Virus record (IMG/VR): IMGVR_UViG_3300025706_000025
Reading direction: 5' to 3' (one strand)
Length of the DNA: 64,000 nt
Source: an uncultured virus (IMG/VR IMGVR_UViG_3300025706_000025)
Lineage: Duplodnaviria > Heunggongvirae > Uroviricota > Caudoviricetes
A model generated the notes under the pieces. It was not told the origin of the DNA and searched no databases. It was given only the letters and a program-made list of their open reading frames with translations. Positions within the stretch are counted from its first letter, which is position 1. Each line of letters starts with the position of its first letter. The translations under genes and the position numbers were made by a program. This document shows, one piece after another, positions 4,980-56,169 of the stretch.

Positions 4980-5300
4980 ATGAAAAGTTTTACCGAAGCT
5001 GACGGCATGGTTACATACCGGGCCGTTGTTTTCCCGCTGCCAATGTTTGTGCAGCAACAACTGAAAGAATCGGCCGAGCGATTGAAAGACCTTCGTACTG
5101 CCATGGAACTGGCCGATAGCGCCTATGCCCGTCGCCGTGCCGCTGACAAATATGCGGCTGCGCAGCTTGACCTTGATCAACAAGAAGAACTCATTCGGGC
5201 CTTCGCCGGCGTTTTAGTTACGCGACCGGAATTTGTTTCGATCGCTCCGGAAGTCAACCGTGGCCCGGCGCCAAAGAAAAAGGAGATCGTGACGCAATGA
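4980..5300 (+). CDS. hypothetical protein
   Basis: AAGGAG RBS, ATGA coupling to pol. Confidence 0.65.
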   Translation: MKSFTEADGMVTYRAVVFPLPMFVQQQLKESAERLKDLRTAMELADSAYARRRAADKYAAAQLDLDQQEELIRAFAGVLVTRPEFVSIAPEVNRGPAPKKKEIVTQ

Positions 5301-6589
5301 AATTCAATCTTGATGAACTCGTCACAATCGATTACGAGACCTTCTACAGCAGTACGTACAGCCTGCGTGCCAAAGTGTACAACACCTCTTCCTATATCAC
5401 TGATCCGCAGTTTCAGATTCATTGCTGCTCGATCAAGATGGGCAAGAACAAGTCTAAATGCTATTGGGGGCAAGACGCAGTAAAAGCAGCGCTCCAAGCC
5501 ATCGACTGGACAAAGCACGATCTACTCGCCCACAACAATTTTTTCGACGGGTTCATCTCGTCGCACCATCTTGGTATCCGTCCGCGTCGCCGGTTCTGCA
5601 CCGTGCAGATGACGCGCGGTCTGCATTCGGACATGTCCAAGGCCAGTCTGCAAGCCATCTGCGAGTTTTACGGTATCCCCGGCAAGACCGAGGGTTTGAA
5701 TGACGTGAAGGGCTTGCGTACCGACGAGATTACCGGTGAGAAAAAGAAGAACCTCATGTCGTATTGCAACAACGACAACGAGAAGTGCTTCGAGGTATTC
5801 AAGAAACAGATCGAGGTATTCCCGGAACGCGAGATCAAGTTGATTGACATCACGTTGTCCATGTTCTGTGATCCAGTGCTTCAGCTCGATACTGCACGTG
5901 CCGAAACCTCGCTCAATTACGAGATGAATGAGCGACTGAAGTTCATCGCCCTTTCTGGTCATGACGACAAGACGCTCACATCGACGCCGAAGTTCGTGGC
6001 GGCGTTGGAAGCCCTTGGCGTCGCTGCCCCGAAGAAGGTCAGCAAGTACAATGGCGAAATATCATACGCCTTGGCCGAGACCGACGCTGAGTTCGTCATG
6101 CTTCAAGAACACGACGATATGCGGGTAGTTCGCCTTGTGCAAGGCCGGCTTGCCGCCAAATCAACCATGATGGAGACGCGCGCGTGGCGACTGATCCAGA
6201 TGCAAGAGACCTGTGGTTCATTGCCAGTTTTGCTGAACTACTACGGCGCGAAGACGGGCCGGTGGAGCGGTGGGAACAAATGCCTAGCAGGGGAGACGAC
6301 GATCGTTGTGAGCCGCAACGGGAAGGTTCTGTATATTCCGTTGTCTACTCTGATGGACTCTGATAGAGTGTGGGACGGAGAGGAGTTTGTCTCTCATTCC
6401 GGCCTTCTCTATCATGGCGAAAAAGGAGTTATGACCTATGACGAAATTACAGGCACACCCGACCACGAAGTTAGTACCGCCTTCGGGCAGACCCGGTTGG
6501 ACGCTGCCGAGGACACCGGGGTCGCACTTACGGTTGGGAATCTCCCTCAAGGACTGGGTGCACCTTCGCAAGATTTGCCAAGTCGCTAA
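5297..6589 (+). CDS. family A DNA polymerase N-terminal half (3'-5' exonuclease, thumb) fused to split-intein N fragment
   Basis: DYET ExoI, AHNNFFD ExoII, YCNND ExoIII, YYGAKTGRWSGGNK then intein CLAGET. Confidence 0.92.
   Translation: MKFNLDELVTIDYETFYSSTYSLRAKVYNTSSYITDPQFQIHCCSIKMGKNKSKCYWGQDAVKAALQAIDWTKHDLLAHNNFFDGFISSHHLGIRPRRRFCTVQMTRGLHSDMSKASLQAICEFYGIPGKTEGLNDVKGLRTDEITGEKKKNLMSYCNNDNEKCFEVFKKQIEVFPEREIKLIDITLSMFCDPVLQLDTARAETSLNYEMNERLKFIALSGHDDKTLTSTPKFVAALEALGVAAPKKVSKYNGEISYALAETDAEFVMLQEHDDMRVVRLVQGRLAAKSTMMETRAWRLIQMQETCGSLPVLLNYYGAKTGRWSGGNKCLAGETTIVVSRNGKVLYIPLSTLMDSDRVWDGEEFVSHSGLLYHGEKGVMTYDEITGTPDHEVSTAFGQTRLDAAEDTGVALTVGNLPQGLGAPSQDLPSR
6281..6586 (+). mobile_element. 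split intein N fragment (IntN, 102 aa)
   Basis: block A CLAGETTIVV, D.VWDG, block B TPDH; ends at stop 6587-6589. Confidence 0.88.
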
Positions 6590-6995
6590 AGATCGGTGCG
6601 TTAATCCGAAGAACGTAATGTTCCCACGTTATGGCGGGCGCGGTATCACTTTCGGGTTTTCTACCGGGAGTGATATGGCGGAGTGGGTCATTACGAACCT
6701 CGGTCTTCGCCCGACTCCAGAACATACCCTCGATAGACGGGATAACGACGAGGGATACATAGCAGGAAACCTCCGATGGGCTACTCGTGACGAACAGGCG
6801 CAGAACAAAGGCCGCTATGTTGCGTGGCGGTACGGAGAGCGGCTTCGTGAACTATGTCGCTTACGGCCTGACTTAAGCTACGAAACGATCCGTACATGGA
6901 TCAATCAAGGAATGAACAATGTTGAAATTCTCACCCGAACTAAAACCACCAGCGGTCGCCCGCGTGTACGACATTCTGGAGTGCGGGCCACGTAA
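6438..6995 (+). CDS. HNH homing endonuclease overlapping both intein halves in a different frame
   Basis: RC...YGGRGI...LDRRDNDEGY..GNLRWAT..EQAQN; AAGGAG 9 nt upstream of ATG. Confidence 0.88.
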   Translation: MTKLQAHPTTKLVPPSGRPGWTLPRTPGSHLRLGISLKDWVHLRKICQVAKDRCVNPKNVMFPRYGGRGITFGFSTGSDMAEWVITNLGLRPTPEHTLDRRDNDEGYIAGNLRWATRDEQAQNKGRYVAWRYGERLRELCRLRPDLSYETIRTWINQGMNNVEILTRTKTTSGRPRVRHSGVRAT

Positions 6996-7029
6996 CCAGT
7001 TCTGGGCAAACGGTAAAATCGTCTCGAAT
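6919..7029 (+). mobile_element. split intein C fragment (IntC, 37 aa)
   Basis: block F VYDIL...QFWANG, block G IVSN followed by Cys+1. Confidence 0.88.
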
Positions 7030-7950
7030 TGCAATTTCCAGAACATGCCGACGGCCACGAAGGATTATCCGATGGCCGGCGAGTTGCGCAAAGCGATTCT
7101 GGCACCTAAAGGCCACATGATCATCGCCCCAGACTCGGCGCAGATTGAGGCACGGGTACTGGCGTGGATCGCTGGCCATGACGAATTACTAGATCGCTTC
7201 CGTAACAAGGAGGACGTCTACAAGTTCATGGCTTCATTGATTTACAACGTGCCGGCTGAAGAGATTGATGCGGAACAGCGCTTCATCGGCAAGATCGCCG
7301 TGCTGGGCCTTGGCTACAGTATGGGTGCCAAACGCTTCCAGACTACCCTCGCCCTCGGCGTCATGGGGCCACCGATGGTCCTGTCGATGCTCGAATGCAC
7401 GAAGATCGTCAAGATGTACCGCAAGATCAACAAGGTCATCGTCGACTTCTGGGGTGAATGCGAAGACGTTCTTGAAGCGATGTGCCAAGGCAAGTCCGGT
7501 ACGTTCGGCAACAACGGGCTGCTCGAATATGACGGTACCGACATCTGGTTACCCAATGGCATGGGACTACATTACCCCGGCCTGAAGATGACGTGGGACA
7601 CCGAGCGCAATCGTCGCTCTGGTTTCTCCTACATGTCGGCCGGCATCAAGAAGCACATCTACGGCGGGCTGCTCGCGGAGAATATCGTGCAGGCTTTGGC
7701 CGGCGTGGTGATTCGCGAGGAGATGACCGAGGTCGATGATTATTACGCGACACTCAAGCTCCGCAAGGGCGAGATCGCTAAGATCGTCACCATGACGCAT
7801 GATGAGATCGTCAGCGTCGTACCGGAGCGCATCGTCAAGAAGGCGCTGGAAGTTAATCTCAAGATCATGCGGACCCCGCCAACATGGGCACCCGACATGC
7901 CTATTTGGGCAGCGGCCGAAGCTGGCTGGGCACCGAATTATTCCGTGTAG
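6919..7950 (+). CDS. IntC fused to family A DNA polymerase C-terminal half
   Basis: NFQNMP, motif A DSAQIEAR, motif B RFIGKIAVLGLGY, motif C HDE; AAGGA 7 nt upstream of ATG. Confidence 0.92.
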   Translation: MLKFSPELKPPAVARVYDILECGPRNQFWANGKIVSNCNFQNMPTATKDYPMAGELRKAILAPKGHMIIAPDSAQIEARVLAWIAGHDELLDRFRNKEDVYKFMASLIYNVPAEEIDAEQRFIGKIAVLGLGYSMGAKRFQTTLALGVMGPPMVLSMLECTKIVKMYRKINKVIVDFWGECEDVLEAMCQGKSGTFGNNGLLEYDGTDIWLPNGMGLHYPGLKMTWDTERNRRSGFSYMSAGIKKHIYGGLLAENIVQALAGVVIREEMTEVDDYYATLKLRKGEIAKIVTMTHDEIVSVVPERIVKKALEVNLKIMRTPPTWAPDMPIWAAAEAGWAPNYSV

Positions 7951-7956
7951 AAAACT

Positions 7957-7986
7957 TTGTTGTTATCTGGTATCATCTGATATACT
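7957..7986 (+). promoter_or_regulatory. putative sigma70 extended -10 promoter
   Basis: TTGTTG-N18-TATACT with TGn (TCTGATATACT), intergenic. Confidence 0.45.
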
Positions 7987-8016
7987 CTGGCAGAGTGTTC
8001 TAAAGGATAAACAAAC

Positions 8017-8445
8017 GTGAGTCAAAAACTAAACGCGATGAAGCACGGGCAATCGAAAACCCCGCTTTATCGCGTGTGGAACGCGATGAAGAATCGTTGT
8101 GCAAATAAATCACACAAGGATTACGGCGGCCGAGGGATTTCAGTCTGCCCGCGATGGCTCGTGTGGGAAAACTTCCGAGACGATATGAGTCCGTCATTCA
8201 AAGAGGGACTCAGTCTCGATCGCATAGATAACGACGGCAATTACGAACCAACGAATTGCAGATGGGCTACTCGGATAGAGCAACGCGCGAATACACGACG
8301 TTCAGCTCCTCCGGAACTTGTACAAAAGTTAGCCGAAATCTGTCTGTCGTACTCGCATTACAAAAATCGACTTTTTCATGGCTGGACTCACGAACAAGCC
8401 AGCTCAATTCCTTTAGGAGGCAAAAGAAAATCATGGCAGTTATGA
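8017..8445 (+). CDS. free-standing HNH endonuclease
   Basis: KHG.SKTPLYRVW.AMKNRC...YGGRGISVC..W...LDRIDNDGNYEPTNCRWAT. Confidence 0.9.
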   Translation: MSQKLNAMKHGQSKTPLYRVWNAMKNRCANKSHKDYGGRGISVCPRWLVWENFRDDMSPSFKEGLSLDRIDNDGNYEPTNCRWATRIEQRANTRRSAPPELVQKLAEICLSYSHYKNRLFHGWTHEQASSIPLGGKRKSWQL

Positions 8446-8816
8446 CACTTGGTGCAATGATCGACAACATGTTCGATATCCGTGAGCAGCGCCGCGCACT
8501 GGGCGCAGAAGATAAGCGCCTCGAAGCAGACGCCAAAGAACTCGAAGCCAAGATCATTGCCAAGCTTGATGCCGAGGGCACTGACCGGGGCGCCAGCAAG
8601 AAAGCATCAGCCACTATCTCTGAATCTGACGAACCGAACGTGGTCGACTGGGACAAGTTCTGTGCCTTTGCCAAGCGCACTGGCAACATGCACTTGTTTC
8701 AGCGGCGTGTTTCTGCGCCGGCGTGGCGCGAGCTGCGCGGCCTGAAGAAATCTGAAGTACCCGGTTTGGAGGTCTTCAAGAAACGCAGCATCAATCTGCG
8801 TGTAGTTTCCAAATAA
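8433..8816 (+). CDS. conserved phage replication-region protein
   Basis: AGGAGG RBS; coiled coil then V.DWD.F...LFQRRVS...VPGL. Confidence 0.7.
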   Translation: MAVMTLGAMIDNMFDIREQRRALGAEDKRLEADAKELEAKIIAKLDAEGTDRGASKKASATISESDEPNVVDWDKFCAFAKRTGNMHLFQRRVSAPAWRELRGLKKSEVPGLEVFKKRSINLRVVSK

Positions 8817-15996: not shown

Positions 15997-16178
15997 GCTA
16001 CGTCGCCTACGCGCGACAGAAGGATGGCAAGCTGGCGGCATTCGAAGTGCCGTCGGACTTGTCCATTCCCGAAGTCATCGAAGCCGTGAAGAGCGAACTC
16101 GACGTCGAGCGAGCGATGGTGCTCGTATATGATGCCGACAAAACACCACGTCCTCCATCTGAAAAGGAAGCAGCATGA
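15993..16178 (+). CDS. hypothetical protein
   Basis: GTGA/ATGA coupling on both sides. Confidence 0.5.
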   Translation: MSYVAYARQKDGKLAAFEVPSDLSIPEVIEAVKSELDVERAMVLVYDADKTPRPPSEKEAA

Positions 16179-16855
16179 TCATCTCTCCGATGAAGGTTAC
16201 ATACCGTCGGCACATGGGCGACGATTTGACTATTGTCGATGCAGCCCGTGTATCGTTCGATAAAGAAAGCAAGTGGGAAGACACGGACAGCAGATTTAAT
16301 CAGCTGAATCACGACGATAGCAAACTCATCAACTATCTTGCCAAGCACAAGCACTGGTCGCCGTTCGCTCACACCAGCGTGCAGCTGCGGGTCAAGGCGC
16401 CGATCTTCGTTGCCCGCCAGCTGGTCAAGCACCAAGTCGGCGGCGTCTGGAACGAAGTCTCGCGTCGGTACGTCGATAGCGAGCCGGAGTTCTGGTTCCC
16501 GGAAGTCTGGCGCGGTCGTCCGGTAAACGCCAAGCAGGGAAGCAATGGGATGATCGACAATGTATTCACCAAACAACTTGTGGATGTAACGAGCAAGGAT
16601 ACGATGGGGAATGCTTTGGCAGCATACATCTACATGCTCGGCGAGGGTGTTGCTCCTGAACAGGCTCGCATGGTCTTGCCACAGAACATGATGACCGAGT
16701 GGATTTGGACCGGCTCGCTGATGTTCTGGTGCCGTGTCTGTCGCGAGCGGCTGGCCCCCGGCGCGCAGGCAGAGACTCGTGAAGTTGCCGAGCAGATCGC
16801 CGAGATCGTCGCCCCGCTGTTCCCGGTTTCGTGGGCAGCTCTGATGGAGAAGTGA
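16175..16855 (+). CDS. thyX: FAD-dependent thymidylate synthase
   Basis: AARVSF, H.SPF.H, PIFVARQLVKH, NEVSRRY, APEQARMVLPQ. Confidence 0.93.
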   Translation: MIISPMKVTYRRHMGDDLTIVDAARVSFDKESKWEDTDSRFNQLNHDDSKLINYLAKHKHWSPFAHTSVQLRVKAPIFVARQLVKHQVGGVWNEVSRRYVDSEPEFWFPEVWRGRPVNAKQGSNGMIDNVFTKQLVDVTSKDTMGNALAAYIYMLGEGVAPEQARMVLPQNMMTEWIWTGSLMFWCRVCRERLAPGAQAETREVAEQIAEIVAPLFPVSWAALMEK

Positions 16856-53463: not shown

Positions 53464-56169
53464 TTATGCCGCCATGTGTGAGGTCTCGCCGGCCCCCTCA
53501 GTGAAAGCGCCGAGCTTATCACGCCAGCTCTTCGTTTTCGGTGGCGGCTTCGGTCGGGGTGCTGAGCGGGTAAGCGTCAGGCGCACGCACCACGCCGCCG
53601 CATCGACTTGGTCGTCGTGCTTGCCGGCCGGGAATGTCATCAGCTCACGTACGAACGCGCCGGTCCACGCCTCGTCCTTCTTGATGAACACCTTGTGCAG
53701 CTGCATCCGGCCCTTGAGCGGGTTTGCCCGCACCAGTTTGTCCGTCAGCGGCTGGAGAATCTCGAAGGTGGTGTAGTGCTGGCGCTCAAGGCAGCGCTTC
53801 TCGTACTGCGCCCTGATCGACTTGAAAATCTGCCCGTCCTCGAAGCCCAGCAAGTCTGCGCCCCAGTTGATGCTCTGGTCAATCATGTGCTCGACGATCG
53901 CATTACCGTCGTCGGAGCGGAAGCGCAGGACGTGCAGCACGTAGAGGTTGTCGAACTCATCCTGCCCGATCGTGCAGCAGACCGTGTAGTCGTTGTGGGT
54001 GGCCTCGGTGATCGCGAAGTCCCATGCCTGATAGATGAACATGTTCCGGCGCTGCGGAGCATGCACGTAGTAGTGGATCATCTCCTTGCTGAAGTAGATA
54101 CCGTCGTCAGGCGTCGGGTTCTGCTGGTACAGCGCCTGCCACACCCGCTTCTGGCCGCTGGCCACGAGGTTGCGCTTGATCCGCAGCATCGCCTCGGTGT
54201 CGTAGCGCGCCGGGTGGATCGCCGTGCCGCGCGGCCGGGTGAGCTTCGCGCCTTCCGGGATTGTGGATTCCGGGGCGTACTGCACGATGCTGTCGTCGAG
54301 CAGCAGATACTCGTCGCCCTCGTCGTTGATCGCCGGGTACTTGATCACCTCGAAGACGTCGCCGTCGCCGCTGGCCATCACCTGCTGAATCTTCCCGGCC
54401 CAGTCATCTTCGTTCCACCACGTATTCGAAACGCATAAACCGTTCGCGATGAAATTCGTCGTTCTATCAACCTGAATATCGAAAACCTCCTCCACGCCGT
54501 CCGGCTCTATAGACAGAATTTCACTTAGCGTGAAGTCCGAGGTATCGTGCAGCGGCTCGTGCGACGGGCTCAGTTCTAATATGTCCGATTCCGGCGTTGC
54601 AGTCGTTGCAGAGTAGGCCCCTGACTTTGCCAGTGTCGTGGCAGTGGTCGACTGCGAGGGCGTAGTTCCACACGCTTGGGTTGCGTCGTCCGTCCCCCTT
54701 ACAAATGGCGCAGACACCTCCTTGCTGTTCGAGAAGCGCGTCGTAATCTGCGAGAGTAATCCCGTAGCGATGCTTGAGCCGCGCTTCACGGCGCTTCTCC
54801 CAATCGACAGCGCTCGGGCTACGGTGCCCGTCCGCCCAGCGTTTCTTCCCATAGTGCGAGTCGCATAACCCCCTGCATTTAGCCGGTTTGTCGCACCCTT
54901 CAACAGAACAGGATGTTCCCTTCCACTTTCCCCACTGCCCTTTAAGGTTACGATTCTGTTCGCCGTACTCAAGCTTCTCGCCCTGATCCATTTTAGTTCT
55001 CCGGTCGCGGTTGTCGCCAAAAACGGGTGTCTTCCGTTTGCCCGCACCACTTTACCAGAAATCATCGTGATTTTCAGCACGGAATCAGGCCCGACGCTCT
55101 TTTGCTTGTCCACTCTGGTCGTCGTCAGCTTACCGTTCTCGTAGGTAGCGATCATGTCGTCTCCACGGATGAGCGCAAGTGGTTTTTCCGTGCCGTCCGC
55201 CATCATCACCGGTGTATCGCCAGTCATGCACATGATACCCAGCACACCGCCGCCGGGGGCGAGGCGGGTGTATGCCGTCGAGCCATACCACTCCCACGTG
55301 TTTTCCCGGATCGTCGGGCTGTCCGCGGCCTCGATGTCCTTTACGAGGTCATCAAGCAGAAGGATGTGGGCGCCGCGGCCGGTAATACCGGTGCCGACGC
55401 CGGCCGCCATGTAGCCACCGCCAGACAGCGTGTTCCAGTTTTCAACGCTCTGGCTAGTCGGGTCAAGGCGCATGTCTGGAAAGAGGGCTTGGAAGCTCGG
55501 GTCACGGGTGAGATCACGGATATACCTCGAAAAGGACAGGGTCAGGGACGATGTGTGGCTGGCAGCGATGATTTCCCACTCTGGGTGCTGCCCGAGCACC
55601 CACGGCGGGAAGTGCCTTGATCCTAGCTCGCTCTTTCCAGAGCGCGGGGGCATCATCAGGAGCAGGCGCGGGGACTGGCCCGCCTCAACCTGCTGCATGA
55701 ACCGCTCCAGCCGGCGGCATATGTCCTCATGCACCCACCCGGCCATGTATTTCGGGCGGTAACGCTGCACGAACGGCAAGAAGCGCCGGCGGCACAGCGC
55801 CCGGTGGGCCATTTCCTTCTCCGGGTCTGCCTCTGCTTCCTTCAGATCGAAGGCCGGGGCGGCGTAGGGCAGCTCGAAGGCCTCGTCAAGCGCCTGCTGA
55901 AGGGCGGGATTCGACGCCTTGGGTATCTTCGGGGTGGCTGGCTCTGTCTGGGGTGCCTTCTTGGCTGCGCGAGCGGCGGCGAATGAGTCCGTACCGAGCG
56001 GCCGAACGATGATTTCCGGGTATTTCGAGACTTTGGCCGGTGGTTCAGCGGGTGCCGGGGGCGGTACGCCGGCGTCGACACAGAATGGGCACTGTCCATT
56101 GGCATCCAGCGTCGAGGTTTCGCGCTCTGTCTCACAGGTAGAGCAGGGAGTGAAATCATTCGTCGACAC
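53464..56169 (-). CDS. terL: terminase large subunit with intein
   Basis: MPPRSGKS, ITGRGA.ILLLDD..KD, YQQ.P, WDFA, FPAGKHDDQVDA. Confidence 0.95.
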   Translation of the reverse strand: MSTNDFTPCSTCETERETSTLDANGQCPFCVDAGVPPPAPAEPPAKVSKYPEIIVRPLGTDSFAAARAAKKAPQTEPATPKIPKASNPALQQALDEAFELPYAAPAFDLKEAEADPEKEMAHRALCRRRFLPFVQRYRPKYMAGWVHEDICRRLERFMQQVEAGQSPRLLLMMPPRSGKSELGSRHFPPWVLGQHPEWEIIAASHTSSLTLSFSRYIRDLTRDPSFQALFPDMRLDPTSQSVENWNTLSGGGYMAAGVGTGITGRGAHILLLDDLVKDIEAADSPTIRENTWEWYGSTAYTRLAPGGGVLGIMCMTGDTPVMMADGTEKPLALIRGDDMIATYENGKLTTTRVDKQKSVGPDSVLKITMISGKVVRANGRHPFLATTATGELKWIRARSLSTANRIVTLKGSGESGREHPVLLKGATNRLNAGGYATRTMGRNAGRTGTVARALSIGRSAVKRGSSIATGLLSQITTRFSNSKEVSAPFVRGTDDATQACGTTPSQSTTATTLAKSGAYSATTATPESDILELSPSHEPLHDTSDFTLSEILSIEPDGVEEVFDIQVDRTTNFIANGLCVSNTWWNEDDWAGKIQQVMASGDGDVFEVIKYPAINDEGDEYLLLDDSIVQYAPESTIPEGAKLTRPRGTAIHPARYDTEAMLRIKRNLVASGQKRVWQALYQQNPTPDDGIYFSKEMIHYYVHAPQRRNMFIYQAWDFAITEATHNDYTVCCTIGQDEFDNLYVLHVLRFRSDDGNAIVEHMIDQSINWGADLLGFEDGQIFKSIRAQYEKRCLERQHYTTFEILQPLTDKLVRANPLKGRMQLHKVFIKKDEAWTGAFVRELMTFPAGKHDDQVDAAAWCVRLTLTRSAPRPKPPPKTKSWRDKLGAFTEGAGETSHMAA
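54424..55230 (-). mobile_element. contiguous intein (269 aa) in TerL
   Basis: CMTGDTPV.MADG, NGRHPF, VFDIQV...NFIANG..VSN/T; excision restores GIM-TWWNEDD. Confidence 0.93.
54521..54991 (-). CDS. endonuclease VII-family homing endonuclease nested out of frame within the TerL intein
   Basis: CSVEGC..RGLC..HY, RYGIT, QGGVCAIC, VDHCHDTGKVRGLLCNDCN; GGAG 7 nt upstream of ATG. Confidence 0.9.
   Translation of the reverse strand: MDQGEKLEYGEQNRNLKGQWGKWKGTSCSVEGCDKPAKCRGLCDSHYGKKRWADGHRSPSAVDWEKRREARLKHRYGITLADYDALLEQQGGVCAICKGDGRRNPSVWNYALAVDHCHDTGKVRGLLCNDCNAGIGHIRTEPVARAAARYLGLHAK

Follow-up and report, generated by a model that had tools for sequence, protein, structure and literature searches.

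We describe a fractured gene for a family A DNA polymerase (PolA) in IMG/VR record IMGVR_UViG_3300025706_000025, a 64,000-nt stretch of DNA from an uncultured virus of the Caudoviricetes that was analysed as a whole and is called the window hereafter. At positions 5297-7950, the polymerase is divided between two open reading frames (ORFs), the first ending in the N-terminal half of an intein (IntN) and the second beginning with the C-terminal half (IntC), and a third ORF, coding for an HNH-like putative homing endonuclease, bridges the two. The arrangement probably represents a split class-1 intein that is trans-spliced to give a polymerase of 634 aa and that houses a homing HNH-like gene. The fractured polymerase gene is real and very probably functional, with a new split-intein pair, and protein trans-splicing is the most likely mechanism. 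The evidence comprises the anatomy of the ORFs, their colinearity with intein-less (“empty”) alleles, the conservation of the split, purifying selection, the Hint fold of a relative and a signature of recent transfer.

Anatomy of the split gene

The N-half ORF (5297-6589) encodes 430 aa and ends TGRWSGGNK|CLAGET...GTPDH...PSR before its TAA stop, and the C-half ORF (6919-7950) encodes 343 aa that run MLKF...VYDIL...ANGKIVSN|CNFQNMP. An earlier reading made from the letters alone (the sequence-only reading) had described both ORFs in these terms, and its other figures held when recounted: all three frames are in use (ORF start coordinates 2, 0 and 1 modulo 3), IntN carries 15 D/E and 6 K/R, IntC carries 3 D/E and 5 K/R, and the exteins add up to the spliced length of 634 aa. 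The parts are as follows.

5297..6280, + strand: PolA N-extein, 328 aa, 3'-5' exonuclease-like N-part up to the TGRWSGGNK motif
6281..6589, + strand: IntN, 102 aa plus TAA stop (6587-6589), with Cys1, the VWDGEEFV block and GTPDH (block B)
6423..6428, + strand: AAGGAG ribosome-binding-like site of the HNH-like gene, within IntN codons
6438..6995, + strand: HNH-like putative homing endonuclease gene, 185 aa, +1 frame relative to IntN
6907..6911, + strand: AAGGA ribosome-binding-like site of the IntC/C-half ORF, 7 nt upstream of ATG 6919
6919..7029, + strand: IntC, 37 aa, C-terminal end ANGKIVSN
7030..7950, + strand: PolA C-extein, 306 aa plus stop, beginning with the +1 Cys and containing polymerase motifs A, B and C

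Both internal ATGs stand immediately behind an in-frame TGA (6432-6434 directly before ATG 6438, and 6913-6915 just before ATG 6919), and AAGGAG lies 9 nt upstream of ATG 6438. The element as a whole (6281-7029) measures 749 nt, which is no multiple of 3, so a single in-frame insert is impossible. The HNH-like ORF begins within IntN (upstream of block B in elements of the window type) and shares 152 nt with IntN and 77 nt with IntC. As in natural split inteins and fractured genes, two extein-intein ORFs, one closed by its own stop and the other opened by its own start, line up with an uninterrupted homologue, and a free-standing endonuclease gene lies between the halves on the same strand.

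The polymerase and its empty alleles

The C-half matches Pfam PF00476 (DNA_pol_A, E 1.8e-25), and both halves match the DNA polymerase family phrog_17 of PHROG (E 2.9e-16 for the N-half and 8.3e-44 for the C-half). The translation of the C-extein shows PDSAQIEAR, KIAVLGLGYSMG and THDE, and a DNA_pol_A domain with motifs A, B and C is present, as in family A enzymes. The nearest homologues from isolated phages are the polymerases of Pseudomonas phages KPP25 and phiR18 (31-38% identity), and the tblastn alignment of the N-half to these ends at residue 328 exactly.

A search of 5.8 billion proteins with the N-half, from which the best 120 homologues were listed, returned full-length intein-less polymerases of 631-634 aa, among them P0009, which has 634 aa and is 97% identical over the N-extein. 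At the site, the intein-less homologues read TGRWSGGNK-[V/M/L/T]-NFQN. Placed on such an uninterrupted protein, the exteins of the window abut without gap or overlap. The sole difference from the empty alleles at the junction is the Cys at +1, the nucleophile needed by the intein, where V, M, L or T stands in all full-length homologues listed (P0009-P0123).

Empty alleles are also seen in DNA. Locus L007 is one of them, with AAC AAA GTG AAT at the site and 634 aa encoded. The locus stretch of the window is present in public sequencing runs of several studies, and in three of these (X2, X4 and X6) contigs join 6279/6280 to 7032/7033 via GTG or GGT, beside the invaded form; in X6, a contig also joins to 7036 via GATGAAC. 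Read against L007 and P0009, on whose agreement the call mainly rests given short flanks of 20-56 nt, the junction contigs are evidently Val and Met empty alleles that co-occur with the invaded allele.

The two halves resemble an intein

The same IntN / HNH-like / IntC module occurs in many viral PolA genes, as found by tblastn of the window's parts against 40 loci. In an alignment of IntN from 14 split elements (A1), Cys1 (6281-6283 in the window), T59 and H62 are invariant, along with the VWDGEEFV block and GT..H. The T-x-x-H of block B is TPDH in the window, and [GA]TPDH or GT.NH is present in all 9 close N-halves listed. In the matching IntC alignment (A2), D18, VYDI, CGPR, ANGK and N37 are invariant, and the residue at +1 is Cys or Ser in 14/14. 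With its nucleophilic Cys1 and its terminal Asn followed by Cys at +1 (IVSN|C), the window shows the residues of a class 1 intein.

Structural evidence comes from L030, a contiguous mini-intein relative of 125 aa without endonuclease that is 36% identical to IntN and 41% to IntC. Its AF2 model has a mean predicted local distance difference test score (pLDDT) of 77.4, and its top Foldseek matches are inteins and Hint domains only: the first 13 are all inteins, the best being the Spl DnaX mini-intein (E 3.6e-4). In structural alignment with VIA-align, the model matches the Npu DnaE intein (4kl5) at Z 10.0 and a root-mean-square deviation (rmsd) of 2.8 over 112/125 residues, Mtu RecA at Z 9.9 and gp41-1 at Z 9.7; 47/149 chains reach Z >= 8. 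The Hint fold is thus seen in L030, the window's own halves being modelled as two chains only.

The two-chain prediction of IntN (A1) with IntC (A2) scored 0.60 versus 0.02 for the best of 3 controls, with at least 96% of contacts agreeing between runs and a partner pLDDT of at least 61. This lends weak support. In calibration, the mark was reached by 116/157 solved complexes and 2/215 mismatched pairs, and those passing at 0.60 or below comprised 18/157 solved complexes and both mismatched pairs that passed; as solved split-intein complexes exist, the pass could also stem from likeness to them.

It could be asked whether the halves splice at all, or whether they serve as association handles of a two-subunit polymerase held together non-covalently. 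There is a precedent in Aeh1 nrdA/mobE, where, as in the window, an HNH-type gene divides a phage replication-related gene into two halves and overlaps, with its 3' end, the half that follows (PMC2677866); unlike the window, that gene lacks intein halves, and its two pieces come together without being spliced (PMC3045599). The loss of the penultimate His of IntC in the window type would also fit. We nevertheless consider this explanation unlikely: all 14 split elements keep Cys1, T..H, the terminal Asn and a Cys or Ser at +1, and the +1 Cys is restricted to invaded alleles, with V/M/L/T in the empty ones, as expected only if a nucleophile is needed.

The split state is conserved and under selection

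Among 24 elements found in the TGR motif of PolA, 20 are split, 3 are contiguous (L023, L026, L039) and 1 is cut by a contig end; the 20 include 5 near-duplicates of others, and one of the split elements, L005, is the window's own twin. The HNH-like ORF lies in the +1 frame relative to IntN in 23/23 complete elements. IntC lies in the +2 frame in 18/20 split elements and in frame 0 in the other two (L015, L022), where it is set apart from IntN by stops. The first ATG of the IntC ORF follows an in-frame stop by 1-14 codons in 17/20 split elements; in L014, L016 and L017, the distance is 23 or 59 codons. A purine-rich site precedes the majority of these ATGs. At the protein level, 21 of the best 120 homologues of the N-half (plus two likely cases), with 40-93% identity, end 89-151 aa after Cys1.

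Selection was estimated by the Nei-Gojobori method. The proportion of nonsynonymous differences (pN) is below that of synonymous differences (pS) in 91/91 pairs for IntN and in 91/91 for IntC. Between the window and L006, the ratio of nonsynonymous to synonymous rates (dN/dS) is 0.22 for IntN and 0.13 for IntC; for the exteins, it is 0.23-0.30 versus L006 and 0.07-0.08 versus L038. Where IntN and the HNH-like ORF overlap (6438-6589), pS between the window and L006 is lowered in both frames (0.31 and 0.47, versus 0.56-0.80 outside). This fits dual coding and, coming from a single pair, is only suggestive; a metagenome scan with IntN gave 3 loci, too few for a multi-sequence test of it.

Stops and frame changes within an essential-looking gene might also be the marks of decay, in which a selfish insertion has broken a polymerase that is now non-functional while another polymerase replicates the phage. 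We regard this as improbable. The extein dN/dS of 0.07-0.30 and the purifying selection on both intein halves speak against it, as does a split architecture kept from 93% down to ~30-40% identity, and no second DNA polymerase was found when 53 of the 73 candidate ORFs of the window were compared with PHROGs. The split persists in an essential replication gene whose splice residues are intact, and this is difficult to square with a dead gene.

Sequence support from independent runs

Contigs of four public runs (X2, X3, X4 and X6) were aligned to the locus. Those of X2 (6251-7098), X3 (6251-7100) and X4 (6251-7067) are identical to it with 0 gaps. The sequence-only reading had called for read mapping across 6430-7030, and would have been undone by indels restoring one ORF; none is listed for 6251-7098 in any of the 4 runs. 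X2 and X4 share year and habitat and may come from one campaign, and X3 is from another year and another habitat. Contigs are blind to rare variants such as a minor repaired form; the split form is the assembled majority in every run aligned. The split sequence of the locus is not an assembly slip. In the nearest virus record (G001), the region has no match, and blastn of the region against phage genomes gave none.

These contigs bear on a further explanation, that of a contiguous intein-endonuclease fusion obscured by assembly errors or read through two programmed +1 frameshifts. The frames do step +1 and +1 (N-half, HNH, C-half) in 18/20 split elements, and contiguous relatives exist (L023, L026, L039). 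We find this explanation very improbable. Identical, indel-free contigs come from three runs, and every ORF has an ATG of its own that is preceded by a Shine-Dalgarno-like site and immediately follows an in-frame stop. With overlaps of the HNH-like ORF and IntN of 134-266 nt, a shift would lose block B or the N-part of the HNH-like protein. IntC is in frame 0 and separated by stops in L015 and L022, and the HNH-like ORF is out of frame in contiguous relatives as well.

Introns with HNH genes are frequent in phage polymerase genes, and excision from the RNA of a group I or II intron that contains the endonuclease gene is the least credible alternative, with next to no probability in our view: there is no Rfam match (E up to 1) in 5200-8500, hence no group I intron, the boundaries fall exactly at Cys1 and at Asn|Cys, and the intein blocks are in frame with the exteins.

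Mobility and the HNH-like bridging gene

Comparison with L038 reveals a recent-transfer signature. The exteins are 83-84% identical in DNA, with a synonymous difference of 0.56-0.67, whereas 6281-6995 is 95-99% identical, with a synonymous difference of 0-0.1. Identity breaks on the left exactly at 6280/6281, and dense mismatches resume at ~6975; the IntC protein is 100% identical, yet there are 6 synonymous differences in 6996-7032. An element far more alike than its exteins, with so sharp a left break, points to a recent move between diverged polymerase alleles, and indicates that the module, or its IntN and endonuclease part, was probably moved by homing.

The bridging ORF matches PHROG families annotated as HNH endonuclease (phrog_3377 at E 2e-26, and another at E 2e-14). 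Its AF2 model (pLDDT 78.5) is confident at residues 30-125 and shows two short strands followed by a helix at residues 97-122; the first 27 residues, encoded within the overlap with IntN, are predicted to be disordered. We call the protein HNH-like and regard it as a putative endonuclease.

Two features of its relatives and surroundings may be recorded here. Most bridging endonucleases in their alignment (A4) have ~255 aa and an N-terminal C.CG...SC..C zinc-ribbon-like segment (e.g., L008 5139-5903), which is missing in the 185-aa window protein and in those of L006 and L038; the HNH-like ORF of L038 ends 5 codons before that of the window. Directly after polA lies a second free-standing HNH-like gene (8017-8445, + strand, 142 aa), 27% identical to the bridging one. 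Its DNA is 98-100% identical to L038, versus ~84% in the flanks, and it is absent from the intein-less L007; it looks like a separately mobile homing endonuclease gene.

Proposed mechanism

A split class-1 intein with a free-standing endonuclease gene between its halves, in line with the sequence-only reading, accommodates the 634-aa empty alleles, the splice residues and the selection on both halves, and equally the Hint fold of the contiguous relative, the separate starts behind stops and the clean contigs. We infer a course of events in a wastewater tailed phage of ~64-70 kb. A class-1 intein, with an HNH-like gene inside it in the +1 frame, would have occupied the conserved TGR...N.QN.P motif of the polymerase, and stops and frame changes would have turned it into two halves. 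Three proteins would be made from separate starts, namely N-extein-IntN (430 aa), the endonuclease (185 aa) and IntC-C-extein (343 aa), and IntN and IntC would associate into a Hint fold. Cys1 would then attack the GGNK peptide bond, forming a thioester with the GGNK carbonyl; the +1 Cys would take over the N-extein by trans-thioesterification; the terminal Asn of IntC would cyclise, and an S-N shift would give the peptide bond. The product would be a 634-aa polymerase unlike the uninvaded alleles only in having Cys for Val/Met at the junction. In co-infections, the endonuclease is expected to cut intein-less alleles, with the whole module copied in (homing).

Several observations weigh against this interpretation. 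In the window and in L006, Ser stands at the penultimate position of IntC, where 12/14 relatives have kept His. The sequence-only reading had proposed a hidden Markov model search for Hint domains, and here the outcome was unfavourable: curated profiles make no call at their cut-offs for either half. Pfam reports no Hint or intein family for either one, TIGR01445 gives IntN 16.8 bits versus a cut-off of 24.5 (E 0.01), and neither phmmer nor profile searches with IntN and IntC found a significant match among PDB sequences, the best (E 0.43) covering only the final 13 residues of the Spl DnaX mini-intein. For the bridging protein, there is no Pfam or NCBIfam match, structural matches of the model are weak (PacI, Z 5.2, rmsd 3.9, 84 aligned), and Foldseek returned none that is significant (best the Gme HNH nickase, E 0.83); alignment A4 shows DR (in DR.DN) at what we take to be the place of the first His of the HNH motif. 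The right identity break versus L038 (~6975) falls inside IntC, away from the splice site. Because part of each half is also read in the HNH frame, the selection estimates for these parts are confounded. Six runs (X6-X9, X11 and X18) are labelled RNA-Seq; X6, the sole one of these aligned, as contigs, is flagged as probably DNA, and the RNA-labelled runs are probably DNA and so unusable for transcription of the locus.

Some of these points have a bearing beyond the locus. Since curated profiles fail, the intein case rests on comparative and structural evidence. Pfam and NCBIfam gave nothing at threshold for both halves and three contiguous relatives, and hhalign of the family alignment (A3) against a Pfam-positive intein in the window's TerL returned an uninformative probability of 2.6%. 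By these searches, the intein family lies outside current profiles. As for the right break inside IntC, it means that the last exchange was no simple whole-element insertion into an empty allele; it suggests either that two alleles that both carried the element exchanged sequence or that a conversion tract has its end there.

A wider family of polymerase inteins

The pair of the window belongs to a large family of inteins that has so far gone unrecognised and uncurated. An IntN profile searched against 1.84 billion representatives gave 2583 matches at E <= 0.001, of which 1026 reach E <= 1e-10; family representatives are counted at 50% clustering. The best 150 of the 2583 comprise 65 split N-halves (at least 300 aa, ending with IntN), 69 proteins with IntN and IntC in one ORF, 15 fragments and 1 unclear case.

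The module is found in three registers of one PolA motif, which differ in position by as much as 5 residues: after TGR., after TGR..G and after TGRWSGGNK (the window type). These three registers rule out a single insertion site shared by all relatives. It is also found in motif B and at a third, more C-terminal PolA site. L023 is a contiguous version at the window's exact register, with the IVSN|C ending and an element of 798 nt. An HNH-like ORF lies out of frame in the contiguous relatives too, and in relatives generally it overlaps IntN by 134-266 nt and IntC by 4-77 nt. In nine distinct split relatives, IntC has only 26-27 aa; in natural split inteins, its usual length is 35-40 aa (PMC10189870). 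The 26-aa form (M..VPVYDI..CGPR..ANGK.VHN) occurs in L008 (5887-5964), L009, L010, L014, L018, L020 and L027, with IntN partners of 102-112 aa.

The chances seem to us roughly even that all of these, the window's pair being one state among them, belong to one very large lineage (VWDGEEFV / CGPR..ANGK.VHN) in which the HNH-like gene is always an overlapping +1 ORF, indels switch the intein between cis and trans, at least three registers of one PolA motif and other PolA sites are occupied, and IntC shrinks to as little as 26 aa.

Several relatives have features of their own. Streptococcus phage Javan255 (L002, 3146-3919) and Pseudomonas phage MR14 (L003, 3087-3845) carry a motif-B intein. In GenBank, each has one long “DNA polymerase I”, in which the HNH-like ORF is nested in another frame and unannotated; the middle of the annotated protein is an out-of-frame reading of the HNH-like gene. 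Two modules in one PolA gene are found in L014 (4949-7659), L016 (4952-7674) and L017 (1966-4697), where a split module in the TGR motif is followed by a contiguous motif-B module with a nested +1-frame HNH-like ORF, and many top family matches have two IntN stretches in one protein. Moraxella phage Mcat20 (L001, 2788-3720) encodes a chimeric-looking “hypothetical protein” of 310 aa (phrog_26005) that consists, in order, of a thymidylate-synthase-like N-part, PolA-like AHTGRYGG, a contiguous mini-intein of the same family as the window's (C...VHN|S) and an unrelated C-part. The thymidylate synthase ORF of the window (16175-16852) also matches phrog_26005.

Relation to known systems

Fractured genes with free-standing endonucleases are already known, as the sequence-only reading had said (PMC2677866). 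Dassa et al. described them in 2009 in gp41, NrdA, NrdJ, IMPDH, DnaE, ligase, TerL and one unknown protein, with endonucleases that are GIY-YIG or Vsr-like; HNH enzymes are only said there to be such as “could” fracture genes (PMC2677866). The window shares with these genes the order N-extein-IntN, endonuclease gene, IntC-C-extein on one strand, a phage-like DNA-metabolism host and the existence of both empty and invaded alleles. It also shares an endonuclease 3' end that lies over the start of IntC, by 77 nt in the window and by 6-69 bp in their cases (PMC2677866). It differs in its PolA host, in its HNH-like endonuclease and in an endonuclease ORF that starts inside IntN with an overlap of 152 nt, where theirs have 27-51 non-coding bases between IntN and the endonuclease gene (PMC2677866). 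The PolA host, the HNH-like gene and the ORF overlaps on both sides are new relative to that report. Our full-text literature search found no split intein in a family A polymerase, with most subscription journals and supplements outside its scope, and no HNH-type gene in a fractured gene, with supplements, including Table S1 of Dassa et al., outside its scope.

The sequence-only reading had also likened the halves to the cyanobacterial DnaE split inteins (Npu/Ssp), and the likeness holds for half sizes (~100 and ~36 aa) and for charge, IntN being acidic and IntC mildly basic. Class 1 chemistry with Cys1 and Cys+1 would be shared, and the Npu DnaE intein is the best VIA-align match of L030. However, the DnaE intein has no detectable sequence relationship to the window halves, its own halves sit at separate loci without an endonuclease gene (PMC2677866), and its host is the cellular Pol III alpha subunit instead of a phage PolA.

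Actinobacteriophage inteins (bioRxiv 10.1101/2025.01.02.630785) resemble the element in having an endonuclease gene nested in the intein in another frame, and are the nearest precedent for that nesting. The contiguous relatives (Javan255, MR14, L023 and others) have exactly this nested layout, with an HNH-like gene in +1, whereas the out-of-frame type described there is endonuclease VII-like and in frame 3, the HNH inteins there being in frame; unlike those contiguous inteins, the PolA element of the window is split. The window holds an intein of that kind elsewhere. Its TerL (53464-56169, - strand, 901 aa) contains a contiguous intein (Pfam Intein_splicing, E 8.7e-11, residues 344-582) with boundaries GIM|CMTGDT and CVSN|TWW and a middle part that resembles out-of-frame filler. 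An ORF of 156 aa (54521-54991, - strand), endonuclease VII-like (PF02945, E 8.2e-22), is nested in TerL in another frame, the layout reported for actinophage TerL inteins (bioRxiv 10.1101/2025.01.02.630785).

Significance

Few natural split inteins have been characterised, and split inteins are workhorses of protein engineering. The sequence-only reading had offered a candidate new split intein pair; the pair is new, but it is one of many related split pairs, and its arrangement was already known. The locus adds a pair in a new host enzyme, backed by at least 65 diverged split representatives among the best 150 matches, some of them with an IntC of 26 aa versus the usual 35-40 aa (PMC10189870). 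Annotation is affected too: in GenBank, phage polymerases such as the Javan255 and MR14 enzymes are entered as one long protein that conceals an unannotated endonuclease ORF in another frame. At one and the same site, the module is found in a contiguous and in a split state, alongside alleles that lack it, and recent transfer has left a clear-cut trace. The gene-breaking model of Dassa et al. called for just such intermediates; an HNH-like gene, present here, was only predicted there. If the single lineage proposed above is real, it would be a natural experiment in gene breaking and a pool of dozens of possibly orthogonal split inteins.

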